49,838 bases of DNA from a virus (IMGVR_UViG_3300046477_000062:118548-168385), one strand, 5' to 3'; shown: positions 5,027-21,034, counted from the first letter of the stretch. The notes: generated by a model from the letters alone, not told the origin. Numbers and translations are program-made.

Positions 5027-5482
5027 CTATTTATTCACCCCGAGATGTTTCTCGGTGAGGACGATGAACTTGTATCCCTTGCGATCACAAAACTTCTTAG
5101 CAGCTTCCCACTTGGCTTGATTGGTCAGCCACATGATCACTTCCTCAACATATTTCTTCGTCTTTCTCTTTGGTTGCTTCGGTTCCTTCGTGTACTTCTC
5201 CGGCTTCACTTCGACAAGGTAGGTGACGACCGTTCCATCAAGATTCCTAATAGTCATTTTGAAGTCAACGAAGTACCGGTGACTCAATCCATCTACAGGG
5301 GATATGTACGGAATGATTGTTTCCTCACTCGACCACGACAGAACATTTGATCGCTGATCACAATAGTTCATGAACTTCAGTTCCCAACTACTGCGATATG
5401 TGATGTTGTGAATGTCGCCTTTGTATTTCAAAGGGTTCCGTGGTTTCCACTTACCCTTGTATGCATTAACCCCATACGCCAT
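5027..5482 (-). CDS. gp4: Head completion protein, T4 gp4-like (TnsA-like PD-(D/E)XK endonuclease fold)
   Basis: YKGKWKPRNPLKYKGD..ITYRSSWE...WSSEE..IPY..HRYFVDF...LVEVKP...NQAKWEAA. Confidence 0.92.
   Translation of the reverse strand: MAYGVNAYKGKWKPRNPLKYKGDIHNITYRSSWELKFMNYCDQRSNVLSWSSEETIIPYISPVDGLSHRYFVDFKMTIRNLDGTVVTYLVEVKPEKYTKEPKQPKRKTKKYVEEVIMWLTNQAKWEAAKKFCDRKGYKFIVLTEKHLGVNK
5028..5033 (-). promoter_or_regulatory. Putative late promoter for gp2/gp54
   Basis: ATAAATAG on minus strand overlapping the gp4 stop codon. Confidence 0.55.
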
Positions 5483-5933
5483 TTATGATCTTCTCCATCC
5501 CGCGATCCATCGCGGCCAATTCTTGTTCTGTGATTTCTCGCGGGAATGGACGACCGTTGATTGCGGACTGATCCTTAATTCTCCTAATCACTGCATCGGT
5601 CATTGGGTATGGGTTCACATTCTTCGACCCCAACGGCCTTCCTCTGCTGATGGTGTTCCCTTTCATCGCCGCCGACAGCTTGCTGCGGCGTTCTGGGTCG
5701 TCCCACTGTTTGTACTTCAATACTTCAGACGAACATCGGTTGCTGCAATACTGCGAATACCCCTGATTCAAGTCCCTGTAGTCGGTAGGGTTTCCGCATG
5801 TTTCGCAACCTCGGCATCCACCAAGGTACTTATCGTAATATTCCTTGGATGACAGTTTGTGGGCCTTCAGGTGTTTCGAAAGAGAATTGAATGACGCAGC
5901 TTCTTTATTGCAAATCTTGCAGTTGTGGGTCAT
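5466..5933 (-). CDS. Multi-zinc-finger putative DNA-binding protein
   Basis: C2H2 pattern CKIC-x12-HLKAH, CRGCETC, YCSNRC, and basic GRPLGSKN; no nuclease motif recognised. Confidence 0.7.
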   Translation of the reverse strand: MTHNCKICNKEAASFNSLSKHLKAHKLSSKEYYDKYLGGCRGCETCGNPTDYRDLNQGYSQYCSNRCSSEVLKYKQWDDPERRSKLSAAMKGNTISRGRPLGSKNVNPYPMTDAVIRRIKDQSAINGRPFPREITEQELAAMDRGMEKIINGVWG

Positions 5934-5973
5934 CGCCTAAATATTAGTTGTATAAAACCAACTATTTAGGCGA
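5933..5973. promoter_or_regulatory. Pair of divergent late promoters forming an imperfect palindrome
   Basis: TAAATA on + at 5938-5943 (gp48) and on - at 5963-5968 (zinc finger/gp4); arms TCGCCTAAATA..GTTG / CAACTATTTAGGCGA. Confidence 0.6.
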
Positions 5974-5977
5974 AGAT

Positions 5978-7192
5978 ATGTCCCTGCTTTCTGGAATCAT
6001 TGATGGTGCAAAGTCGAAGATTGAGTCGGCAGTCACGTCTCACCTTCCGCTTTCCAATCTAAATAAGGCCACAACCAACCTCGGAATAAATAAAACCACT
6101 TTGGCGGAAGGGGGTTCAGATAAATACGCCATCGGAAATTACCAATATCCGCAAGACCTGAGTGTCGCGGCGGATCAGCCGCATTGGGTCACGTTCTACA
6201 TCAACGTGCGCGGTAAATCGAAAATCGCACAGAACAATCCCGATCTGTTGGCGACGGGTCAACCGATTAAGATCGCAGAGAATCGTCTGGACCCGGCTTC
6301 AATGGATAACGCGATCATTGGCACGGCTGCGGTCGGCGGCGCTGTGGCTGCATTGGGGGCCGGTAAGCAGATCATCTCGCTGGCCGGGAAAACTGCGTAT
6401 GCTCGTTCCTTGGGGAAGGGCAGCGGCAAGGTCTTAGCTGGCGCTGATGCGTCTGCGGCGGTTCTGGGGGCATCTGCTATCACGGCGGGCGTTGGAGCCG
6501 CTGTAGGGGGCGCTGCGGCGGCTATGACGGTCAAGCCGGATACAACCTACCGACTGAAGGACGCAATCACCCTGAACGTCTCACAATCGCCTGTGTTCCA
6601 TTCCAGCGCAAACTACGATGTCATGGAGTTCGGCGCACTTGGTGGATTCGCGGCGGGCGGTTCGTCCTACGCCGACACATTGAATGCAAGTCAGCAGAAT
6701 CAGGAAGCATTGCTGGCGGCTGCACGGACAGCACTGAAGGAATCGGGCAAGTTCCTGACTAAATCGGCTGGTGCAATGATTGAGGCCACGACGAAACAAA
6801 CCCTGAACCCGTATCGAGAAGTACTGTTCAAACAGATTAACTTCCGTCAGTTCTCGTTTGATTATCGTTTCTTGCCCCGGTCGCAAACTGAAACTGATAT
6901 GGTGCAACAGATTATCAAGACGTTCCGGTATCACATGCACCCGGAAATGAGTTCGGGCGGTCTGTATTATATTCACCCCTCTGAGTTTAATATCCAGTAT
7001 TACTTCAAGGGTAAAGAAAACTCATACATCAATAAAATCTCGACATGCGTGCTGGTTGATATGGACGTTCAGTATGGCCCATCAGAAAAGTTCTCGACGT
7101 TTGGAGATGGTGCGCCGGTTGAGTACAGTATGCGTCTGGTCTTTCAGGAACTCGAAACTCTTACAAAGGAACGCGTTGACGCGGGTTATTAA
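5978..7192 (+). CDS. gp48: Baseplate tail-tube cap, T4 gp48-like
   Basis: NPYREVLFKQINFRQFSFDYRFLPRSQTE...FRYHMHP...PSEFNI...KISTCVL...LVFQELETLTK; start re-called to ATG 5978. Confidence 0.9.
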   Translation: MSLLSGIIDGAKSKIESAVTSHLPLSNLNKATTNLGINKTTLAEGGSDKYAIGNYQYPQDLSVAADQPHWVTFYINVRGKSKIAQNNPDLLATGQPIKIAENRLDPASMDNAIIGTAAVGGAVAALGAGKQIISLAGKTAYARSLGKGSGKVLAGADASAAVLGASAITAGVGAAVGGAAAAMTVKPDTTYRLKDAITLNVSQSPVFHSSANYDVMEFGALGGFAAGGSSYADTLNASQQNQEALLAAARTALKESGKFLTKSAGAMIEATTKQTLNPYREVLFKQINFRQFSFDYRFLPRSQTETDMVQQIIKTFRYHMHPEMSSGGLYYIHPSEFNIQYYFKGKENSYINKISTCVLVDMDVQYGPSEKFSTFGDGAPVEYSMRLVFQELETLTKERVDAGY

Positions 7193-7711
7193 ATGTCACA
7201 GAATAATTTGTTCAAAGCTAAATACGGTTCTCCGAAGACCCATGAGAAAATGTCCACTCATGAGAATCCGTACATCCGCGCAGAAGTTGCGCGACATGCA
7301 TCACCCGAGATTCGCGATAGACTGTACAAGGATCGTGATGAAGTTGTACGGGCGGCAACGGTCAAGGGCGCACCGAAGGCGCATATTGATCGGGCAATGT
7401 CGGACCCGCATGAAGCAGTCCGACAGCAGGTTGCGATACACGGCCACGACAGTCATCATCAGGTGTTGCAGCATGATCGAAATGACAACGTGCGATACCA
7501 AGTAGCAGCACACTCACAGAACCCGAGCATCCTGCATCGTCTGGCGCATGATGAATCCAATGATGTGGTGCGAAGCGTCATCGACAACAAACACACGCCA
7601 CACGAAACGTTGCGCCATATCGCAGACAACCACACGTCAGAACGGATTCGCGACAAGGCAGACAAAGAACACTACGGACGCACCGAATTGGGCGGCTGGA
7701 TACCGGAATAA
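7193..7711 (+). CDS. His-rich HEAT/LRV-type repeat protein A (172 aa)
   Basis: ~24-aa repeats D-x4-VR-x2-VA; N-terminal FKAKYGSP; starts immediately after the gp48 stop. Confidence 0.8.
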   Translation: MSQNNLFKAKYGSPKTHEKMSTHENPYIRAEVARHASPEIRDRLYKDRDEVVRAATVKGAPKAHIDRAMSDPHEAVRQQVAIHGHDSHHQVLQHDRNDNVRYQVAAHSQNPSILHRLAHDESNDVVRSVIDNKHTPHETLRHIADNHTSERIRDKADKEHYGRTELGGWIPE

Positions 7712-7714
7712 ACG

Positions 7715-8428
7715 ATGAACGCAGAAGACAGAGACGACAATATTTCCAACTTCGGTGTCCGGTTCGGATCACAACGAGTGCATGAGAAGTTGGCAAACCA
7801 CGAAAGCGAATACACGCGCGAAGCACTGGCATCGAATACGGAACACAAGCCGATCCTCGATAAGCTGATGAAGGATAAGCGTCCTTCCGTGCGCAAGGCG
7901 ACGCTTCGGTTTCACAATCACAAAGACCACATCGACGCGGCGGTCCATGACCCCGACTTCTCGGTACGTGGTCTGGTTGCATACAAGGGCCATCATCACG
8001 ATACGCTTGTACATGACCATGATGACTACGTTCGCACAGCGGTTGCATCGGCGGGTTCAAAGCCACATCATGACATCCTGATGCACGACGAAAGCCCGAA
8101 GGTTCGTATGGAAGTCGCACAGCATGGTCATAACGAACATCGCGATAATCTGATGCACGACGAGAACTGGAAGGTACGTGAACGGGTCGCACGGTTCGGC
8201 AATGATAAGCATCGCGACCATCTGGTCCATGATTCGGTCCCGGCAGTACGTGAGGCAGTTGCGGAACATGGTAACGACAGTCATCACCAAGTACTGAAGA
8301 ACGACTTCGATAGCAAGGTTCAATTTGCGACGATCAATAAGACCAAGAACCCGGAAATTTTGGATCACATGTCCAAGCATTCGGCATGGCCGACGAAGGC
8401 GGCGGATAAATTGAAAGGGTTGAGATAA
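7715..8428 (+). CDS. His-rich HEAT/LRV-type repeat protein B (237 aa)
   Basis: Repeats such as LMHDESPKVRMEVAQHGHNEHRDN; N-terminal FGVRFGSQ. Confidence 0.85.
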   Translation: MNAEDRDDNISNFGVRFGSQRVHEKLANHESEYTREALASNTEHKPILDKLMKDKRPSVRKATLRFHNHKDHIDAAVHDPDFSVRGLVAYKGHHHDTLVHDHDDYVRTAVASAGSKPHHDILMHDESPKVRMEVAQHGHNEHRDNLMHDENWKVRERVARFGNDKHRDHLVHDSVPAVREAVAEHGNDSHHQVLKNDFDSKVQFATINKTKNPEILDHMSKHSAWPTKAADKLKGLR

Positions 8429-9156
8429 TGGCAGACGATTACGACATCGAAGACAACAAGCATCACTTCAAGGCAAAGTTCGGTTCACCAAAGATTCATG
8501 ATGAAATGATTGCAGGTAAGCCGGGTAAGTTCGGCATCAAACCACAACATGACCATCTCGAAACCATCGCATCACATGGCGACCCAGAACATCACGCGGC
8601 ACTTTCGAAACACCCTAATTGGGTAGTTCGTAACGCAGTGGCGCAATACGGTAATCACGATATACACGACCACTTGATGCATGACGAAGATTCGAGTGTT
8701 CGTCAGACCGTTGCACAACATGGGACCGACAGACATCACGATCATCTGATGCACGATCCCGACCTGTTTGTACGTACTATGACGGCACAGCACGGTTCAG
8801 TACAGCATCAAGATCACCTGATGAACGACTCACATTTCAGAGTACGTCAGAGTGTTGCCGATCATGGCGAAGATCATCACTTCGACAAGCTGATGCATGA
8901 TCCCCACGAAGCGGTTCGACATTCGGTTGCAAGGACGACTGACAATCCCCGACACTTTGATCATCTAATGCATGACAAGGACGCTTCGGTTCGTGCTATG
9001 GTCGCTCGACGTGGCGAAGCGAAACATGCCGCACATTTGATGGACGAGAACAACGAACCCGAAGCACTGGTTCGGAAGTTTGCCCGCGAACGTCATGCAC
9101 ACTTTAATCGGGTTGACGAATCGGTCATGTCCTTCAAGACGTTTTCGGCTAAATAA
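8428..9156 (+). CDS. His-rich HEAT/LRV-type repeat protein C (242 aa)
   Basis: Repeats such as HLMHDEDSSVRQTVAQHGTDRHHD; N-terminal FKAKFGSP; TAATG coupling. Confidence 0.85.
   Translation: MADDYDIEDNKHHFKAKFGSPKIHDEMIAGKPGKFGIKPQHDHLETIASHGDPEHHAALSKHPNWVVRNAVAQYGNHDIHDHLMHDEDSSVRQTVAQHGTDRHHDHLMHDPDLFVRTMTAQHGSVQHQDHLMNDSHFRVRQSVADHGEDHHFDKLMHDPHEAVRHSVARTTDNPRHFDHLMHDKDASVRAMVARRGEAKHAAHLMDENNEPEALVRKFARERHAHFNRVDESVMSFKTFSAK
9150..9155 (+). promoter_or_regulatory. Putative internal late promoter
   Basis: CTAAATA overlapping the stop of protein C, 30 nt before 9186. Confidence 0.5.
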
Positions 9157-9185
9157 TAAACTACTACCCATCTCAAGGCTTACAC

Positions 9186-9971
9186 ATGAATATCAACACA
9201 AGCATCGTCAATGCATACAAACTGGCCCACTGGTCGCAGCTTGACGAAAGCGTTCTTACCGAAGAACAGATTCAATTCATCGTTGAGAACCGGATCGAAC
9301 ATCTGAAGAAGTCGAACCCGGAAATCAGCACGGCGCATGATCCGCACGCACAACATAAAGACGCTGGCGCAATCATCGACCACTTCGCAACGCACGCTGA
9401 TCCGTCGCCCAAGAAGACGAACACGCAATGGATCGTCGGCCAATACAAGAAGGGCAACATCCGACAAGAAGACGCTGGTCGCGTTCATGGCGCATTGTCC
9501 AGCTTCGAGAAGTACAAGGGCAAGCTGGCGAACAAAGACCTGAACAGCTACAAGAAGGTGTCGGACGTTGAAGATGCAACCGCTCCGCACGAAGGCACGT
9601 TCGCTTCGAAGAAGGAAGAAACGCGCGCAGTGAAGCATGAAGGCGCTGATCTGAAGTACGAAGACGATCACATCACGATCCACCACATCAAGAACGAAGA
9701 TGCCGCGAAGCATTACGGCAAGGGCACGAAGTGGTGTACGGCGGCGGATAACAACAACATGTTCTCCCACTATCACGCCGATGGTCCGATCCATGTGATT
9801 CACCACAAGACCGAAAAGCAAGAGAACGGTCAGCCGCGAAAGTGGCAGTTCCATGCAGCTTCCAACCAGTTCATGGACGAGAAGGACAACGAGATTTCGC
9901 ACGAAGACTTCAACAAGATCAAGCCTTCGTTCCATAAGGCCATCGACAAGCATCCTGAAATGGTGGAGTAA
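9186..9971 (+). CDS. Hypothetical protein D with YGKGTKWCT...GPIHVI...KWQFH...QFMD domain (261 aa)
   Basis: Strong phage codon bias; N-terminal L/I-x-E motifs (LDE, LTE, IVE). Confidence 0.85.
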   Translation: MNINTSIVNAYKLAHWSQLDESVLTEEQIQFIVENRIEHLKKSNPEISTAHDPHAQHKDAGAIIDHFATHADPSPKKTNTQWIVGQYKKGNIRQEDAGRVHGALSSFEKYKGKLANKDLNSYKKVSDVEDATAPHEGTFASKKEETRAVKHEGADLKYEDDHITIHHIKNEDAAKHYGKGTKWCTAADNNNMFSHYHADGPIHVIHHKTEKQENGQPRKWQFHAASNQFMDEKDNEISHEDFNKIKPSFHKAIDKHPEMVE

Positions 9972-9976
9972 CTGCA

Positions 9977-10219
9977 ATGAGCGCACTCAACAAAGCCAAG
10001 TTCGCAGAGAAGTATGGTACTGATGCGCTCAAAGCGAAGCACGACCCCATGTGGCAGGAGCATATGGAAGGCATCGACAAGAACGCATCAAAGATCGCTG
10101 ACCTTCCTATGCGCCATGTTCGCGCCGTGTTCAACAAGTACAAAACAGAAGACCCGTTCATTGCAAAGCTGGCAGCGGATCACTTCAACCGAATGGCACA
10201 AAGAGGATGTAAAGAATAA
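9977..10219 (+). CDS. Small helical protein E, possible minimal paralogue of the repeat proteins (80 aa)
   Basis: N-terminal FAEKYGT motif; C-terminal ADHFNRM resembles HAHFNRV of protein C. Confidence 0.7.
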   Translation: MSALNKAKFAEKYGTDALKAKHDPMWQEHMEGIDKNASKIADLPMRHVRAVFNKYKTEDPFIAKLAADHFNRMAQRGCKE

Positions 10220-10863
10220 TGTTCCGCGATAATAGCAACTTCCTTGCGAAGTGGGGTTCACCTAGTCATATCAATCGCCTAACACAAAGCCCGAACGAAC
10301 ATGATCGTCTGGCTATCGCAAGTAAGCGTCCAGAAGAACACCACAAGATGCTCAACGATCCTTCTGAACGAGTTCGAAAGACAATCTCTTACAACACACC
10401 CAACAAGGCGCATCTGGACCACTTCGTCAACGATTCGAGTGAGTTCGTTCGTTCTAATGTCGCGAAGCGCGGACATAAGGAACACTTGGATAAGCTGGTA
10501 CATGATTCCGATTGGGCGGTGCGTGATAGGGTTGCAGCACATGGCCATCCTGAACATCTAGCGAAGCTTGTCGATGACCCACATGAGATTGTCCGCAATC
10601 GCGTGGCATCAAAGGGTGTAGGACACGATAAGTACATCCATGATTCATCATCAATGGTCCGTGGTATGGTCGCGAGTATCGGCAGCGAAGATCACAAGGC
10701 ACATCTGGCTAACGATTCGAACGTGAACGTCCGCATGGAAGTTGCAAAGAGTTCTGAACACCCGGACACCCTAAAGAAACTCTACAAGGATAGCCATCCT
10801 GACGTATCGAGACACGCTCTACGTCATGCCGCCGACCTTGGTATCGATGTGAGGAAAGAATGA
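10219..10863 (+). CDS. His-rich HEAT/LRV-type repeat protein F (214 aa)
   Basis: Repeats such as HLDKLVHDSDWAVRDRVAAHGHPE; N-terminal FLAKWGSP. Confidence 0.85.
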   Translation: MFRDNSNFLAKWGSPSHINRLTQSPNEHDRLAIASKRPEEHHKMLNDPSERVRKTISYNTPNKAHLDHFVNDSSEFVRSNVAKRGHKEHLDKLVHDSDWAVRDRVAAHGHPEHLAKLVDDPHEIVRNRVASKGVGHDKYIHDSSSMVRGMVASIGSEDHKAHLANDSNVNVRMEVAKSSEHPDTLKKLYKDSHPDVSRHALRHAADLGIDVRKE

Positions 10864-11489
10864 GTCAAAGTATGCAATTCCGGGCTAGGTTCGGTACTCC
10901 CAAGATGGTCGATGAAATGCAACATAGCGATGATGCTGATGCACGCGCAGCGGTTGCAGAGAAGCATCCTGATCGACACGCACAGATGCTTGACGATTCG
11001 GATGAATATGTCCGTGCAGAGATTGCGCGACATGGTAACAAGGCTCACTTGGATCATCTGATGAAGGCACCCGACATTCATTCGTCTGACTGGTTGCTTG
11101 GTTCGAATATCGCCCGTAATGGTCATCCCGAACACTTGGATAAGTTAGTCAATCATCCGAGTGAATTGGTGCGTCAGGCGGTGTCTAATCACGGACTAGA
11201 CCGTCACCATGATGTGCTGATGCACGATCAAAGCTATCATGTGCGGTCGTCAGTCGCGGTAAATGGCAACGATAACCATCGTCGCGCGTTGATGAACGAT
11301 CCACACTCAGAAGTACGAAGTAGTGTTGCACGTCATACACACGATCCAGCTATCATGGCGCATCTTGCGAACGATAAGGACCAAAGCGTCCGATGGACTG
11401 CACAGAATCGCCCTAAGCAAATCGAAGCTTCAAAATTGCGCATGAAATCATTCTTAGATCAACACGGTAACGACGAACTTCTACGATGA
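10860..11489 (+). CDS. His-rich HEAT/LRV-type repeat protein G (209 aa)
   Basis: Repeats such as LMHDQSYHVRSSVAVNGNDNHRRA; N-terminal FRARFGTP. Confidence 0.85.
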   Translation: MSQSMQFRARFGTPKMVDEMQHSDDADARAAVAEKHPDRHAQMLDDSDEYVRAEIARHGNKAHLDHLMKAPDIHSSDWLLGSNIARNGHPEHLDKLVNHPSELVRQAVSNHGLDRHHDVLMHDQSYHVRSSVAVNGNDNHRRALMNDPHSEVRSSVARHTHDPAIMAHLANDKDQSVRWTAQNRPKQIEASKLRMKSFLDQHGNDELLR

Positions 11490-11740
11490 AACACGTACTC
11501 TATTTTTCTGCGCCTTGGTGCGCACCTTGCAAGGCGTTCGCGCCGCAATTTAGTGCAGTGATGGATCAGCACTCCGAAGTATCCTACGCCAAGGTCAACA
11601 TCGATGAAGACTTCGAGAAGGCCCGGACGTATGGTGTACGTGCGATCCCCTGCATCGTGCTTCTGGAAGATGACAAAGAAGTCAATCGTCTGGCGGGCGG
11701 TGCAGTCAACAAAGCCAAGCTTGAACAACTACTGAGCTAA
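11486..11740 (+). CDS. trx: Thioredoxin
   Basis: FSAPWCAPCK active site, KVNIDE, YGVRAIP (cis-Pro motif). Confidence 0.93.
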   Translation: MKHVLYFSAPWCAPCKAFAPQFSAVMDQHSEVSYAKVNIDEDFEKARTYGVRAIPCIVLLEDDKEVNRLAGGAVNKAKLEQLLS

Positions 11741-11742
11741 CC

Positions 11743-12231
11743 ATGTCCTACTTCAGCAACTTCCCATCGATCTACTACACCTTTGATAACGTCTCGGCTA
11801 CGCTGACCAAGAATTTCATGGCGCGCGTTGCGGTGTCGGATGCGCTGAAGTCGAACGTCACGCTTTACTCACCATACACCATCATTGACGGCGAAACTCC
11901 TGAGATTGTGGCCGACAAGGTGTATGGTGATCCTCAACTTCATTGGGTCATTCTCTTGACCAATGAAATCATCGATCCGCGATATGACTGGTGTCTTTCG
12001 CAATTGAACCTCGATGCGATGTGTGAGGCGAAGTACACCAACATGTACGCCACGCATCACTATGAGACGACTGACGGCTATGTCGTGGATGCTTCCTATC
12101 CGGGCGCTGTCTCCATCTCGAACTATCAATACGAAGACCGAATCAACGAAGCCAAGCGGACGATCAAGATTTTGAATCCGAACCTTGTGAGTGAGTTTGT
12201 GAAGGAATTCACAACTGCGATGGGTACGTAA
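11743..12231 (+). CDS. gp53: Baseplate wedge subunit, T4 gp53-like
   Basis: MSYFSNFPSIYY...DGETPEIVADKVYGDPQLHWVILLTNEIIDP...YEDRINEAKRTIKIL. Confidence 0.92.
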   Translation: MSYFSNFPSIYYTFDNVSATLTKNFMARVAVSDALKSNVTLYSPYTIIDGETPEIVADKVYGDPQLHWVILLTNEIIDPRYDWCLSQLNLDAMCEAKYTNMYATHHYETTDGYVVDASYPGAVSISNYQYEDRINEAKRTIKILNPNLVSEFVKEFTTAMGT

Positions 12232-13607
12232 TGACAGACGCAATCAAATCAGGCGTCCAGCACGCGGGTGACATCAACATCGTAGACGTATCGCTGATTT
12301 GCGCCAACGGCACGACGATTGACTTGTTGCCCTTCATGGTTGAATGCAACGTGACTGAAGACATCTTCGCCACGTCGCTGTACGGCAACATCGTGATCGC
12401 TGATAGTATCGGCATCATCGAGAACGGCCCGATCATTGGCGAAGAATATGTCCGTGTGGACTTCCAAACACCCGGCATGACTGCGCACATTGCGAAGACG
12501 TTCCGTGTGTTCAACATTAGTGATCGCAACGTGGCCCTCGATGACAAGACGCAAGTCTTCGTCATGCACTTTTGTTCGCCAGAAGTCTACATCGATGCCA
12601 TGAACAAAATCTTCAAGACCTTTGAAGGTCGTGTCGATCAAGTCGCGGCGAACGTGTACACGAACTACCTGAACGTGGCGCGCAACATCATCGTCAATCC
12701 GAAGTCCAATCAGTTCGTTGATTCGGATGATTCGACATCGATGACGATCCTCACTGAGACGGACAACAACATCAAGTTCACATGTCCCGGATGGGGCGCA
12801 CTGAAGACCCTCAGTTGGCTTGCGGCGAAGTCGATAGACAAGGACACCAAGGCATCAGACGGGCTGTTCTATGAGTCTACGCAGGGCTACTATTGGGGTT
12901 CCATTGGCACGATCCTGAGTGCATGGAAGCAGTCCAAGAAGGTTGCGGGCGAGTTCTACTATTCGCCAAGCAATCGACGCATCAATGAGTCGGGTACGGT
13001 CGCGGTTGATGGTGTCCAGTACACGGTCCCGAACCTGAATCGTGATTACAAGGTGGTCGAAGACTTCCAGATCATCGATTCGTTCAATACGTTGAAGTCA
13101 AACGTTTCGGGCTACTACGCAAACCAAGTGCTGACGGTTGACTTGATCCACAAAGGGTACAAGTACAATAACTTCGATTACGTGCAGGACTTTGCGAAGT
13201 ATCCTCACTTGGACAAGTATCCGCCTTTCACGACGAGTCAGTTCCGCAATCCACAGATGGTAACGGAAGTCGCGTATCAGCATCCAAGCCTATTCAACAA
13301 CGCACCGGCCAATATCAACGAACGCGTTGCGGCCATCAAGCAGAACCGGAAGTCGCTACTGGCGGGGTACTCGAATATCAAGATTGAAGTGACCGTACCG
13401 GGACGCACGGACTTTGAGGCGGCAAGCGTGGTTTATTTCGCGATGCCGAAGATGGGACCGAAGGATGGGAGTGATAAGACCGAAGCGTTCGACAAGTACA
13501 TGTCCGGTCTGTATCTGGTGACGTGCATCCGTCACAAGTTCACGCATGACCGCCATACGATGATCATGGAACTTGTGAAGGACTCGTTTGATAATCCGAT
13601 CAAGTAA
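12231..13607 (+). CDS. gp27: Baseplate hub protein, gp27-like
   Basis: EDIF..SLYGNIVIADS...PIIGEE N-terminus, C-terminal VPG...SGLYLVTCIRHKF...MELVKDS; position after gp53. Confidence 0.75.
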   Translation: MTDAIKSGVQHAGDINIVDVSLICANGTTIDLLPFMVECNVTEDIFATSLYGNIVIADSIGIIENGPIIGEEYVRVDFQTPGMTAHIAKTFRVFNISDRNVALDDKTQVFVMHFCSPEVYIDAMNKIFKTFEGRVDQVAANVYTNYLNVARNIIVNPKSNQFVDSDDSTSMTILTETDNNIKFTCPGWGALKTLSWLAAKSIDKDTKASDGLFYESTQGYYWGSIGTILSAWKQSKKVAGEFYYSPSNRRINESGTVAVDGVQYTVPNLNRDYKVVEDFQIIDSFNTLKSNVSGYYANQVLTVDLIHKGYKYNNFDYVQDFAKYPHLDKYPPFTTSQFRNPQMVTEVAYQHPSLFNNAPANINERVAAIKQNRKSLLAGYSNIKIEVTVPGRTDFEAASVVYFAMPKMGPKDGSDKTEAFDKYMSGLYLVTCIRHKFTHDRHTMIMELVKDSFDNPIK

Positions 13608-17985: not shown

Positions 17986-18014
17986 ATTCTAGCCAAAGTC
18001 GGGGTAGGTGTCAA
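17986..18014 (-). promoter_or_regulatory. Sigma70-like early promoter of island 1
   Basis: TTGACA (18014-18009), 17-nt spacer, TAGAAT (17991-17986). Confidence 0.75.
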
Positions 18015-18049
18015 CTACTTTCGTACTTGGGAATTCAAAAAGGTTAAAC

Positions 18050-21034
18050 ATGGAATATTTCATCGGCGTCGTGGAAGACCGACTCGATCCTTTGCAGCTT
18101 GGTCGGTGTCGTGTCCGCGTCTTTGGCGTTCATACCGAAGACAAGGGAGACTTGCCTACGGCTGATCTGCCGTGGGCCATGCCAGTGACCCCGATCAACA
18201 GCGCAAGCACGTCTGGGGTCGGACAGTCGCCCACAGGCATCGTCAATGGCGCATGGGTCGTCGGATTCTTCATGGATGGGGAAGATCGTCAGCAGTTTAT
18301 GATGACGGGCACACTCACGTCCATTCAAGCTGCAACGATCATCAAGCAGCAAACGACGACCACATCCAACACCACGACAACGACGACTACCGCAACAGCT
18401 TCGGCCCCGGTCGCTGCGGGTGCAACCGCTGTAACAGATTCCAAGCCTGTCGTCAATACCGTCTCAGGTACGGTCGATCCAACCACGGTTCGTCAACCGG
18501 GCGGATGGGTTCTGGGTCAGACCTCGAAGCAGTATGAATCGGGTGGGAAGGGTCCGGGCACGATCAACAGCTACACGAACTCTGGTGACTTGGGCGGTGC
18601 GTCCTATGGCACGTACCAGTTCGCCTCATACCTTCCGGCCAAGATGCCGAATGGTAAGTCACGTCCAAACCCGACGAACAGCCCTGTGGTCGCATACGTG
18701 GCGCAATCGAAGTATTCAAACAGGTTTGCAGGATGTACACCCGGTACGTCTGCATGGGACACGGCATGGAAGGGATGTGCAAGCGAAGACTCACTCGGCT
18801 TTGATGCGGATCAACACGCCTATGTGAAAACCAAGTACTACGATGTAATGATCGGCAACCTGAAGCGGGCTGGTCTTGATCTGACATCGTTTGGTGCGGG
18901 CGTTCAGGACTTGGTATGGTCTACGGCTGTTCAGATGGGACCGGCGCGAACATCGGTGTTCCTGACTCCGCTGAAGGGACAGACACGCCTTGATGACGTG
19001 ACCATCATCAACTTGGTGATGGACTACAAGATCGCGAACGTTCCGGTTCTGTTCTCGCGTTCCTCGGCTGCTATTCAGTCGGGCGTGGCTTCGCGCTACA
19101 AGAACGAGAAGACGGCGCTCCTGAAGCTGGCATCGCAATACAACAGCGCGGCACAGATCGCATCGACATCGGCAGAGAAGGATGCAGTTCTTCCGCCGAA
19201 GCCAGTCACGGCTATTCCGGCGAACCCGGATATTCCGAACTCTGTGGCGCAAGCATTTGCATCGAATTCGACGCTAACGACCACGTTCAATCCGAAGACG
19301 GATTCAGACAATCGTAACCTTCTGGCAATGACGGCAACGGGCTTCAGTGACCCAGACGGCATCTATCCGCTGAAAGAGTACGACAACGAACCGGACACGA
19401 ACAAGCTGGCGCGTGGTGTATCGGCGGGTACGGCATCAGAAGACAAGTCGCTCAATCGTGCAACGGGCATCCGTACAGCGGATGGCGACACGTTTGATCA
19501 GCCGATCAATCCCTACAATGCGCAGTATCCATACAACAAGGTGTTCCAGTCAGAAGCAGGGCACGTTGTTGAATACGATGATACGCCCGGTGCGGAACGT
19601 ATCAATGTCTATCACACATCAGGAACCTTCACAGAAATCGATGCCAATGGAAACATGGTGCGTCGCGTGGTTGGTTCGGATTACCAAATTACGGACGGGA
19701 ATGGCTATGTACGTGTGGAAGGCCGTTGTCATATCAGTGTTGGCGGTAGTGCTAATATCACTGTCGCAGCGGATGCCAATATCGAAGTCGATGGAGACGC
19801 ATTTCTCACCGTTGGGAATGACCTCGTTGCAGCAGCGGGCGGTCGTGCTCAGTTGAGTGCGGCAGAGGCAATTGATCTTCGTGCGCCGAACATCTACATC
19901 GAAGCTGATGAAGAACTGCATATGACGGCTGGTTCGAAGATCAACATCGAATCACAAGGTCCGATCAGCCAGAAGTCGGCTACGGCCACGATGATCGAAG
20001 CAGGGAACAACTTGGAAGTAACGGTTGGTGCGGACTATAACCTGAATGCTGGCGGTCATGGCAACATCCAGACGACAGGTGATGCGAACATTCAGGCGGG
20101 CGGTTCTGCGAAGTTGTATGGCACATCGTCAGCGCACCTGAAGTCAGCCGGTTCGACAAACCTCGATGGCGCTTCGATGAATATTCAGGCGGGTGCTTCG
20201 GTTCAGGCCGATGGTGCAAGTCCTGTTGCTCCCGAAGATGCAGAGTTCTCCGAAGCAGGTTTGATGGATGGCCGGATCAACTACGCGGAAGATGTCTTTG
20301 ATGATGAATTCCCGACCATTCAGGCAGATCGTCAAGCACTGGCAGTTGAGACGCCTGAAGAAGCGGCTAATGGCGGCACAGACACCGTTCGTGCGGCACT
20401 GGTTGAATCGGGTGTGGCAACTGCATCGGAACTGAATCAAGCGCCTGTAGCGCAGTCTGACGTACCGGTGATCACCTTGCCGACCATCGCTGTTCCTGTT
20501 GCCAACAACAAGTCGGACCCGAAGCAGATCGCCTACATCAAAACGTTGTCGGGCATTCCGCTTGGATTCAAGCTGACGCCGAACTTCACCTTGGGGCAGT
20601 TGTCGGCCAATGCTCCCGCGCAACGTGATCGAGTAAGGGCGCAATGTAACTTGACTGAGGGCGAAATCGTTGCCAACCTGTATGAAGTCGCAGTGAACAT
20701 CCTCGAACCCATCAAGGCTGCATATCCGAACATGTTCGTGACTAGTGCCTTCCGAGACTTCTCACATAACACCGTGAAGACTGTATCGCAGCACTGTTTG
20801 GGTTTGGCAGTGGACATGCAGTTTACCGGTGTAGCTAAGTCGGACTTCTATGACTTGGCAGGTGCGCTGAAGTCCTTGCTTCCCAACTACGACCAGTTCC
20901 TATTGGAATACAAGTCGTTCGGCACTGGAAATCCGTGGATTCATGTGAGTTTCAATTCGAAGGGAAATCGCGGACAAGTACTGACGATGTTCAACAACAA
21001 GGTACATGGGTCCGGGTTGATCAAGTTGGCCTAA
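18050..21034 (+). CDS. gp5: Baseplate central spike gp5: OB domain + lysozyme-like (VgrG3-C-like) domain + beta-helix + C-terminal M15-type peptidase
   Basis: FIGVVEDRLDPLQLGRCRVRVFG OB motif; YESGG..PG...DLGGASYGTYQ; YPYNKV..SEAGHVVEYDDTPGAERI; TSAFR...SQHCLGLAVD...PWIHVSF. Start re-called to ATG 18050. Confidence 0.92.
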   Translation: MEYFIGVVEDRLDPLQLGRCRVRVFGVHTEDKGDLPTADLPWAMPVTPINSASTSGVGQSPTGIVNGAWVVGFFMDGEDRQQFMMTGTLTSIQAATIIKQQTTTTSNTTTTTTTATASAPVAAGATAVTDSKPVVNTVSGTVDPTTVRQPGGWVLGQTSKQYESGGKGPGTINSYTNSGDLGGASYGTYQFASYLPAKMPNGKSRPNPTNSPVVAYVAQSKYSNRFAGCTPGTSAWDTAWKGCASEDSLGFDADQHAYVKTKYYDVMIGNLKRAGLDLTSFGAGVQDLVWSTAVQMGPARTSVFLTPLKGQTRLDDVTIINLVMDYKIANVPVLFSRSSAAIQSGVASRYKNEKTALLKLASQYNSAAQIASTSAEKDAVLPPKPVTAIPANPDIPNSVAQAFASNSTLTTTFNPKTDSDNRNLLAMTATGFSDPDGIYPLKEYDNEPDTNKLARGVSAGTASEDKSLNRATGIRTADGDTFDQPINPYNAQYPYNKVFQSEAGHVVEYDDTPGAERINVYHTSGTFTEIDANGNMVRRVVGSDYQITDGNGYVRVEGRCHISVGGSANITVAADANIEVDGDAFLTVGNDLVAAAGGRAQLSAAEAIDLRAPNIYIEADEELHMTAGSKINIESQGPISQKSATATMIEAGNNLEVTVGADYNLNAGGHGNIQTTGDANIQAGGSAKLYGTSSAHLKSAGSTNLDGASMNIQAGASVQADGASPVAPEDAEFSEAGLMDGRINYAEDVFDDEFPTIQADRQALAVETPEEAANGGTDTVRAALVESGVATASELNQAPVAQSDVPVITLPTIAVPVANNKSDPKQIAYIKTLSGIPLGFKLTPNFTLGQLSANAPAQRDRVRAQCNLTEGEIVANLYEVAVNILEPIKAAYPNMFVTSAFRDFSHNTVKTVSQHCLGLAVDMQFTGVAKSDFYDLAGALKSLLPNYDQFLLEYKSFGTGNPWIHVSFNSKGNRGQVLTMFNNKVHGSGLIKLA

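Follow-up and report, generated by a model that had tools for sequence, protein, structure and literature searches.

Histidine-rich LRV solenoids and a conserved WCT-domain protein between gp48 and gp53 of a divergent T4-like phage: a possible split hub-and-adaptor module

The locus described here lies in a 49,838-nt stretch of viral DNA (IMGVR_UViG_3300046477_000062:118548-168385; hereafter the window) and consists of a cassette of eight genes (A-H) inserted between the baseplate genes gp48 and gp53, which may encode a two-part system formed by one conserved protein (D) and a set of histidine (His)-rich repeat proteins. The window forms the terminal 49.8 kb of an IMG/VR virus record of 168,385 bp that is ~94% complete. 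The source is a very divergent, uncultured T4-like soil phage: its 458-aa tail/baseplate-module protein (open reading frame (ORF) 12231-13607, labeled 'gp6like' and conserved among relatives) has at most 28% identity to any of 50,697 phage records, and megablast of the 6.4-kb region against these records gave no match. A search of sequencing runs recovered rhizosphere DNA runs only and no RNA runs, with the full stretch present in a single rhizosphere metagenome run, the probable source sample. The eight genes are all on the + strand with intergenic gaps of -4 to +29 nt in the ORF list, in agreement with an earlier note on this DNA that had described them as closely spaced or overlapping, and the solenoid genes fall outside the canonical T4 layout of gp48, then gp54, then alt, as that note had also stated. 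Five products (A, B, C, F, and G) are solenoid paralogues, D carries a conserved domain termed here the WCT domain, and H is a thioredoxin (Table 1). D and E did not score as repeat proteins, the cassette accounted for every phrog_20647 match in the 168-kb genome, and the gp48 ORF has an alternative start (TTG 5948).

The earlier reading of A, B, C, F, and G as alpha-solenoids built from a 24-aa repeat of the LRV type was borne out by profile and structure comparisons. All five matched phrog_20647 (E 3e-12 to 1e-53) and Pfam HEAT/LRV, with the HEAT cutoff passed by B, C, F, and G and the LRV cutoff (21.6 bits) passed by F only. Spacing of the VR anchor was 24 residues in most repeats (22 or 25 at a few junctions), 97 repeats fell into one register in the alignment, and their scaffold positions were L5, V/M6, D8 (81%), V13, R14, V17, A18, and G21. 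A profile of the paralogues matched the Azotobacter vinelandii protein of PDB entry 1LRV (E 3.3e-19, 73 bits, 163 positions), and an AlphaFold2 (AF2) model of C (predicted local distance difference test (pLDDT) 94.9, predicted template modeling score (pTM) 0.86) was a regular solenoid in which each 24-residue unit contributes a helix of ~10 residues and another of ~7, and its top PDB match was likewise 1LRV (template modeling score (TM) 0.67/0.69, E 2.5e-6), matches to PP2A-A being far weaker. The paralogues are assigned to the LRV type rather than to proteins with canonical ~40-residue HEAT repeats because of the 24-residue unit and the 1LRV matches of profile and model. Canonical HEAT repeats (PF02985, ~37-47 residues, two long antiparallel helices) were ruled out by this unit length, and the Pfam HEAT matches spanned only the D-x-x-VR-x-x-VA half-motif. 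A word-based homologue search with C found none, as the repeats defeat the method, and an exhaustive profile search worked. In common with 1LRV and the family PF01816, the phage proteins have a 24-residue repeat with a conserved D...VR..VA and alternating long and short helices, but they differ in having no Cys, in carrying His at repeat positions 1, 2, 4, 7, and 20, which are occupied by Leu or polar residues in 1LRV, and in forming tandem paralogues beside D with an F-x-A-K-Y-G-S-P-K cap. As they have no Cys, the phage solenoids cannot carry the 4Fe-4S N-terminal domain of 1LRV. We know of no function for the 1LRV protein.

The earlier note had also proposed late co-expression with the baseplate genes, and this was supported by the motif CTAAATA, which occurs 11 times in the window compared to 1.16 expected (0/100 shuffles reached 11), at positions 5937, 5963, 6059, 7218, 9149, 17966, 27471, 31560, 34503, 38906, and 46333. 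Ten of the 11 sites are on the + strand and six of these ten sit 30-47 nt before start codons of structural genes, including those of gp48 (5937), D (9149), and gp5 (17966). The site before gp48 was kept in two related contigs (L002 and L011) and reads TAAATA without the leading C in a third (L004), while TAAATA ~30 nt before D was conserved in L002, L004, L011, L017, and L018. CTAAATA is thus a probable late-promoter core of this phage, judged from its distribution in the sequence, and the site at 7218 inside A probably just reflects the A-K-Y codons. The T4 late promoter TATAAATA was rejected as a candidate with only one window site (49084), which was not significant, and scans of the window for sigma-70 promoters and terminators were below shuffle expectation. 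Because CTAAATA precedes both gp48 and D, the cassette comprises two probable late units, gp48-A-B-C and D-E-F-G-trx-gp53 onward, and its late expression together with the baseplate genes is very likely on the strength of the motif. A perfect 10-bp inverted repeat (CGCCTAAATA ... TATTTAGGCG, 19-nt loop; window 5934-5972) spans the divergent gap between gp48 and a gene on the - strand (5466-5933). Each arm contains CTAAATA, one per strand (5937 + and 5963 -), and the repeat could act as a late promoter in both directions or form a regulatory hairpin.

Table 1. Genes of the cassette, its two flanking baseplate genes, and the late-promoter-like motifs, in window coordinates.
Feature	Position	Strand	Description	Evidence or remark
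CTAAATA before gp48	5937..5943	+	late-promoter-like motif, 34 nt before gp48 ATG	would open gp48-A-B-C unit
gp48	5978..7192	+	baseplate tail-tube cap, upstream flank	phrog_230 E 4e-47; weak Pfam T4_tail_cap
A	7193..7711	+	LRV solenoid paralogue, 172 aa, 10.5% His	phrog_20647 E 3e-12; Pfam HEAT 21.2 bits, just under cutoff
B	7715..8428	+	LRV solenoid paralogue, 237 aa, 11.4% His	phrog_20647 E 7e-35; Pfam HEAT 45.5 bits; five 24-aa repeats
C	8428..9156	+	LRV solenoid paralogue, 242 aa, 14.5% His	phrog_20647 E 1e-53
CTAAATA before D	9149..9155	+	late-promoter-like motif, 30 nt before D ATG	would open D-E-F-G-trx-gp53 unit
D	9186..9971	+	conserved non-repeat 'WCT-domain' protein, 261 aa, 8.8% His	80 homologues
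E	9977..10219	+	80 aa, N-terminal KFAEKYGT, almost no repeats	cassette N-terminal motif
F	10219..10863	+	LRV solenoid paralogue, 214 aa, 9.8% His	phrog_20647 E 1e-23; Pfam LRV 29.8 bits, HEAT 37.7 bits
G	10860..11489	+	LRV solenoid paralogue, 209 aa, 10.0% His	phrog_20647 E 8e-26; Pfam HEAT 30.4 bits; LRV 21.1 bits
H	11486..11740	+	thioredoxin (WCAPC), 84 aa	Pfam Thioredoxin E 2e-18; TIGR01068 E 1e-20
gp53	11743..12231	+	baseplate wedge protein, downstream flank	Pfam Phage_gp53 E 3e-14; phrog_232 E 4e-50

Many of the 80 proteins recovered by a homologue search with D are 330-440 aa long and carry 24-residue LRV/HEAT repeats C-terminal of the D domain (e.g., P0174, P0186, P0196, and P0200), and the 576-aa P0102 joins a D domain to a His-rich array (11.3% His) in which a first repeat beginning F-L-A-Q-F is kept. 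A structure search with the AF2 model of D (pLDDT 92.5) retrieved phage and giant-virus proteins with the same domain placed before ankyrin, LRR, DUF4116, WG, or LRV repeats. The closest cultured homologue was EST35_0205 of phage PA5oct (482 aa, Foldseek E 3.5e-15), which is annotated as a structural protein by electrospray ionization tandem mass spectrometry (ESI-MS/MS); 93 products were detected in PA5oct particles, some of which are probably not true virion parts (PMC7318152). Residues T181, W183, C184, T185, Y196, Q221, H223, and D234 were near-invariant in 39 homologues of D down to 26% identity. In the model, a short helix begins at the Cys, a strand ends at the Gln and His, and the Asp follows the strand after that; this predicted layout resembles that of Cys-His-Asp enzymes, and the residue conservation suggests that D is probably an enzyme. 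A PDB profile search with D gave only low-complexity-like matches to designed solenoids. A PcfJ-like domain (PF14284) was rejected as D and five homologues had no Pfam match even at E 5; PcfJ-like proteins appeared only in weak structural matches (probability 0.7-0.97, TM ~0.25) and a feature-based lead. PADLOC and NCBIfam searches with A, B, C, D, E, and F gave no match, and searches of phage records found no cultured relatives with the cassette. Literature searches on the function of the D domain found nothing, and those on phage LRV proteins, HEAT-repeat anti-defense, PcfJ-like proteins, and DUF4116 found nothing relevant. The N-terminal third of D (9186-9400) has invariant H51, D52, H57, H66, and D72 in LRV-associated clades (S-H-D...H-K...D-H-F...A-D-P), a set missing from more distant homologues, and these residues may form a metal site, specific to those clades, within the helical N-terminal domain.

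Gene neighborhoods, fusions, a shared N-terminal motif, and a complex prediction link D to the solenoids. In a survey covering IMG/VR and JGI contigs, D was flanked by one to ~9 LRV genes in the window and in L002/L010, L004, L007, L011, L012, L013, L017, and L018/19, corresponding to D-flanking LRV genes in at least eight independent contigs, and D was fused to LRV repeats in L014, L015, and L020. Cassette-type LRV proteins begin with F-x-[AG]-[KRQ]-[YFW]-G-[ST]-x-K/H (core F-x-A-K-[YF]-G-S-P-K; LFKAKYGSPK in A). A strict form of the pattern was identified in 26 of the 36 D-associated LRV ORFs, with near-variants in most others, compared to five of the 1412 remaining ORFs at these loci, each of them a cassette member: E and its 141-144-aa relatives, a 211-aa G-type ORF in L004, and a short LRV-like ORF in L012. 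E is possibly a cap-only member of the solenoid family; weak matches of E to Acb3 and EndoS (E-values ~0.01-0.09) were discounted as noise. Only eight small His-rich proteins had the motif in a comparison set made up of the 150 top-ranked LRV proteins from 1.84 billion representatives. The representative search also displayed a second class of LRV proteins, 450-1000 aa long and His-rich at 7-9% (P0006, P0008, P0021, P0081, P0103, and P0107), that have in common a different N-terminal domain (S-x-Q-K-x-x-V-D-S-W...), which may be another constant module using a His-rich LRV array. Structure prediction of D with C gave ipSAE values of 0.85, 0.85, and 0.87, compared to 0.00-0.02 for three controls, with at least 95% of contacts shared between runs and a partner pLDDT of 89; 58 of 80 solved complexes and two of 110 mismatched pairs attained this mark. 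The predicted interface involves residues 2, 7, 10-11, 13-15, 17-23, and 33-34 of C, which are those of the N-terminal motif, and residues 199-200, 222, 224-229, 242, and 249-261 in the C-terminal domain of D. The fused WCT and repeat phage proteins (PA5oct EST35_0205, P0174, P0196, P0200, and P0102) share the D domain with its invariant W-C, Q-x-H, and D, followed in many by the same 24-aa LRV repeat, but they are one polypeptide with one array whereas here the repeat part is split over five to nine genes and would require non-covalent docking. Split solenoids re-creating the intramolecular junction of the fused form would fit the F-L-A-Q-F first repeat of P0102.

Comparison with relatives displayed a conserved frame with a variable set of solenoids. 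The same cassette is present in a 168.5-kb sister contig (L002/L010), with 94-98% identity for A, B, D, E, F, and G, and the ratio of nonsynonymous to synonymous substitution rates (dN/dS) was 0.02-0.11 overall (A 0.07, B 0.04, D 0.025, and E 0.055), a constraint equal to that on gp53 or stronger. On these sequence comparisons, the cassette genes are real genes under purifying selection, and the same range led to rejection of fast positive (arms-race) selection on A, B, E, F, and G. C was only 55-58% identical to its L002 counterpart (242 vs. 302 aa) with a dS of 2.1, compared to 0.26-1.0 for the other genes compared and 85-98% identity (most 90-98%) for its neighboring genes, which points to an old, deep allele brought in by recombination and not to fast local change. 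L002 has a sixth paralogue (119 aa) between D and E, L011 has two solenoids 5' of D and four 3', and ~9 solenoid genes surround D beside gp5 in L012, giving copy numbers of 5, 6, or ~9. The L011 region is mosaic, as its D is 95% identical while its gp48 is only 66%. In L004, identity was 69% for gp48, 82% for D, and 75% for the thioredoxin compared to only 38-64% for the solenoids, whose lengths are 298, 245, 252, 119, and 208 aa; two degenerate members were also present, the counterpart of G is a degenerate 211-aa relative, and L003 and L004 carry motif-bearing 144-aa relatives of E. The thioredoxin H was found in L002, L004, and L011 and not beside D in L007 or L012, so that only the close clade retains it at the cassette end. 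Just upstream of gp48 are genes for a TnsA-like endonuclease (5027-5482 (-); Pfam E 2e-17) and a 155-aa Cys-rich protein (5466-5933 (-)). The equivalent site of L004 holds TnsA-like and HNH genes, with a further HNH gene after the thioredoxin, and such flanking mobile endonucleases may drive the mosaicism of the locus. In orthologue comparisons, scaffold positions were 0.82-0.96 identical while the exposed positions 9, 15, 19, 22, and 24 were only 0.24-0.37 identical, and this fixed scaffold with a variable patch on the exposed long helix is, as read from the alignments, the pattern expected of diversified binders. The survey therefore recovered a cassette varying in copy number and content, including the swapped C allele, rather than an invariant one with an assigned structural role, and the earlier description of a diversified paralogue set was upheld by variation concentrated at the exposed long-helix positions.

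Taken together, the cassette is interpreted as a split hub-and-adaptor module, with a probability of about one half: D would be a constant, probably catalytic protein, and the LRV paralogues interchangeable target binders that dock on it via their cap, late-expressed and possibly delivered by the particle. The cassette would be the split and multiplied form of a widespread two-part phage protein that joins a constant WCT domain to variable target-binding repeats, with the repeat part of this clade made as separate polypeptides, the five His-rich solenoids and the short relative E. The cap motif would dock on the C-terminal domain of D beside the conserved Cys-His-Asp-type site, making D a common hub and putative enzyme and the solenoids interchangeable adaptors; since exposed long-helix positions differ among the solenoids, they are proposed to select different targets. 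Both halves would be transcribed late from CTAAATA promoters with the baseplate genes, and the most likely fates of the module would be packaging in the particle for delivery during the next infection, or activity inside the host cell late in the current one. Modular effectors such as the IpaH-type LRR-NEL ligases and the poxvirus ankyrin/F-box proteins combine a constant catalytic domain with a repeat domain that picks the target. The cassette is similar to them in having one constant module, many repeat specificity modules, and paralogue expansion, but it has no homology with them and its specificity modules are separate proteins with one putative hub. A more detailed version, in which the cassette would be an undescribed effector system of the phage, is doubtful: a single Cys-His-Asp-type enzyme (D) would be retargeted by 5-9 His-rich LRV adaptors competing for a single dock, the complexes would enter the particle together with the baseplate or tail and reach the host from there, and the His/Asp face would be a metal or pH switch for loading or release.

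Several observations weigh against the hub-and-adaptor interpretation. The D-C interface is a matter of model confidence, was obtained with custom alignments, and may reproduce fused homologues known to the model, and a fusion indicates a functional link, not a stable complex of the split form. The N-terminal motif can also be read as a normal capping repeat, in which G-S-P-K-x-H-D-x-M aligns with G21...D3-x-L5, and it need not be a docking signal because it is well packed in the C monomer model (pLDDT 84-96). The status of D as an enzyme rests on its conserved residues, because no confident fold or family match was obtained: Foldseek of D against PDB gave nothing at E <= 0.001, D had no Pfam, NCBIfam, or PADLOC match, and GNAT-like VIA-align rows in its C-terminal half (147-261; Z <= 7.3) were not taken as its fold. 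Finally, Vibrio phage vB_VmeM-32 has five dispersed phrog_20647 genes, of which one copy was read and has a different N-terminus, and tblastn with D against this phage gave no match; LRV proteins can evidently work without D.

In a first alternative, each solenoid alone would be a free-standing late binder, i.e., a decoy, sponge, or inhibitor of a host (e.g., defense) protein that is perhaps packaged, with D as an unrelated neighbor. The binder fold, the variable exposed surface, the copy-number variation with the C allele swap, and the five related vB_VmeM-32 genes with no D homologue found would all be compatible with such binders. The vB_VmeM-32 proteins (KU160494; phrog_20647 is in effect its paralogues) are likewise small phage LRV proteins with several copies per genome, and their repeats (G-N-D-x-H-R-D-I-L-V-N-D...VR) have the same position-1 His and position-3 Asp, but the copies are dispersed in non-structural regions, with one beside denA and rnlA, and the copy read has another N-terminal domain, few further His, and no cassette motif. 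The D-LRV fusions, the conserved D neighborhood, and the cassette-specific motif predicted to lie on D argue for a two-part module, and the PADLOC and anti-defense family searches were without match, so that free-standing binders are unlikely and the earlier suggestion of decoys or sponges acting alone is not supported. The accompanying analogy with the T4 internal protein (IP) locus also fails, on the hallmark feature that was compared. T4 IP genes have a short N-terminal signal in common, and T4 IPI-III and Alt resemble the cassette as late-expressed variable accessory genes, with alt placed after gp48-gp54 and Alt entering the host with the DNA. However, there is no sequence or fold relation, and the shared motif of the cassette has no conserved (L/I)-x-E protease processing site after it. 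The motif was accordingly rejected as a T4-type capsid-targeting sequence, the residues that follow it differing (THE, VHE, IHDE, HIN, and MVDE).

Position in the genome bears on a second alternative, in which the solenoids would act with D and the thioredoxin as assembly helpers or accessory structural parts that chaperone or decorate baseplate and tail proteins. In several divergent lineages, the module is embedded among gp48, gp53, gp5, and the 458-aa protein at differing insertion points: the order in L007 is gp48, gp53, LRV-like, D, 458-aa homologue, LRV, gp5, LRV, and ADP-ribosyltransferase (12% His); the module abuts gp5 in L012, and in L016 it faces gp48, gp53, and the 458-aa homologue; and L006 has a fused D-LRV gene between capsid genes and a tail-tube-like gene. 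Such placement, the late co-transcription, the strong purifying selection, and the presence of non-structural assembly factors in the same region of T4 (e.g., gp51) would suit assembly helpers. Against them, the number, length, and presence of the paralogues vary between phages with 66-93% identical baseplate proteins, the insertion point varies by lineage, and D-type domains also occur beside terminase (PA5oct) or capsid genes (L006) and fused to unrelated repeat types, which makes this alternative quite unlikely. As late-gene placement recurs at differing points, it suggests co-expression with particle parts rather than a fixed structural slot, and T4 alt, a packaged effector directly after gp48-gp54, is a loose precedent for the position of the module. 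The L007 ADP-ribosyltransferase-like protein (263 aa, 12.2% His; L007:12206-12997 in NCBI GCA_016276955.3, a contig of a distant T4-like phage) has Pfam ADPrib_exo_Tox on record, lies 3' of gp5 and a small LRV gene, and is a further His-rich late accessory protein in the same module type. In the window, the gp5 spike (18008-21034, 1008 aa) has a Gp5 OB domain and a VgrG3-like C-terminal domain (Pfam E 4e-49).

The His-richness and regular His positions claimed in the earlier note were both verified, with its hand counts confirmed exactly (27/237 in B and 35/242 in C). The five paralogues range from 9.8 to 14.5% His compared to a median of 2.0% in the other ORFs of the window and of 2.2% in the 150 LRV representatives, and His-richness is consequently a trait of this subfamily and not of LRV proteins generally. 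Over the 97 repeats, His occupied position 1 in 72%, position 2 in 36%, position 4 in 22%, position 7 in 39%, position 20 in 32%, and position 22 in 21%, with repeats of C reading H-H-D-H-L-M-H-D. Positions 1 and 4 lie on one face of the short helix in the helix register, and the short helices reportedly form the inner layer of the 1LRV superhelix; a H/D/K-H stripe would thus be predicted on the inner face of the solenoid. By analogy with the ankyrin TPLH motif, the position-1 His may form a structural inter-repeat ladder, because the position is kept even in the low-His vB_VmeM-32 repeats. Such a ladder explains neither the excess at positions 2, 4, 7, 20, and 22 nor the parallel enrichment of D (6-9% His when LRV-associated vs. 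1-2% in distant homologues). It is improbable that metal or proton handling is the primary role, with stacked H1, H2, D3, H4, H7, and D8 binding Zn, Ni, Cu, or Fe or acting as a pH switch (storage, delivery, or triggered unfolding) and target binding secondary: although the 5-7x background level of His at fixed positions, its rarity in LRV proteins generally, and the LRV-associated enrichment of D would favor it, the best-conserved His may be the structural one, and simple metal handling would not call for five to nine diversified paralogues whose surfaces vary.

Even if the hub-and-adaptor interpretation does not hold, the cassette is a clearly bounded family of His-rich solenoids with a conserved His ladder needing explanation. 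The combination of a WCT domain with swappable repeat binders appears common in large phages, as indicated by the 80 relatives of D from one search and by the many Uroviricota structure clusters in which the domain occurs alongside LRR, ankyrin, LRV, DUF4116, or WG repeats. The split form would be useful experimentally in that the constant and specificity parts are separate small soluble proteins with an interface predicted at residue level, and natural variants with 5, 6, or ~9 adaptors and a swapped allele at C are at hand. If true, the interpretation would provide a compact natural 24-residue-repeat scaffold for binder engineering, with variable positions 9, 11, 12, 15, 16, 19, and 22-24, and would show a phage diversifying its host targeting around a single catalytic module.

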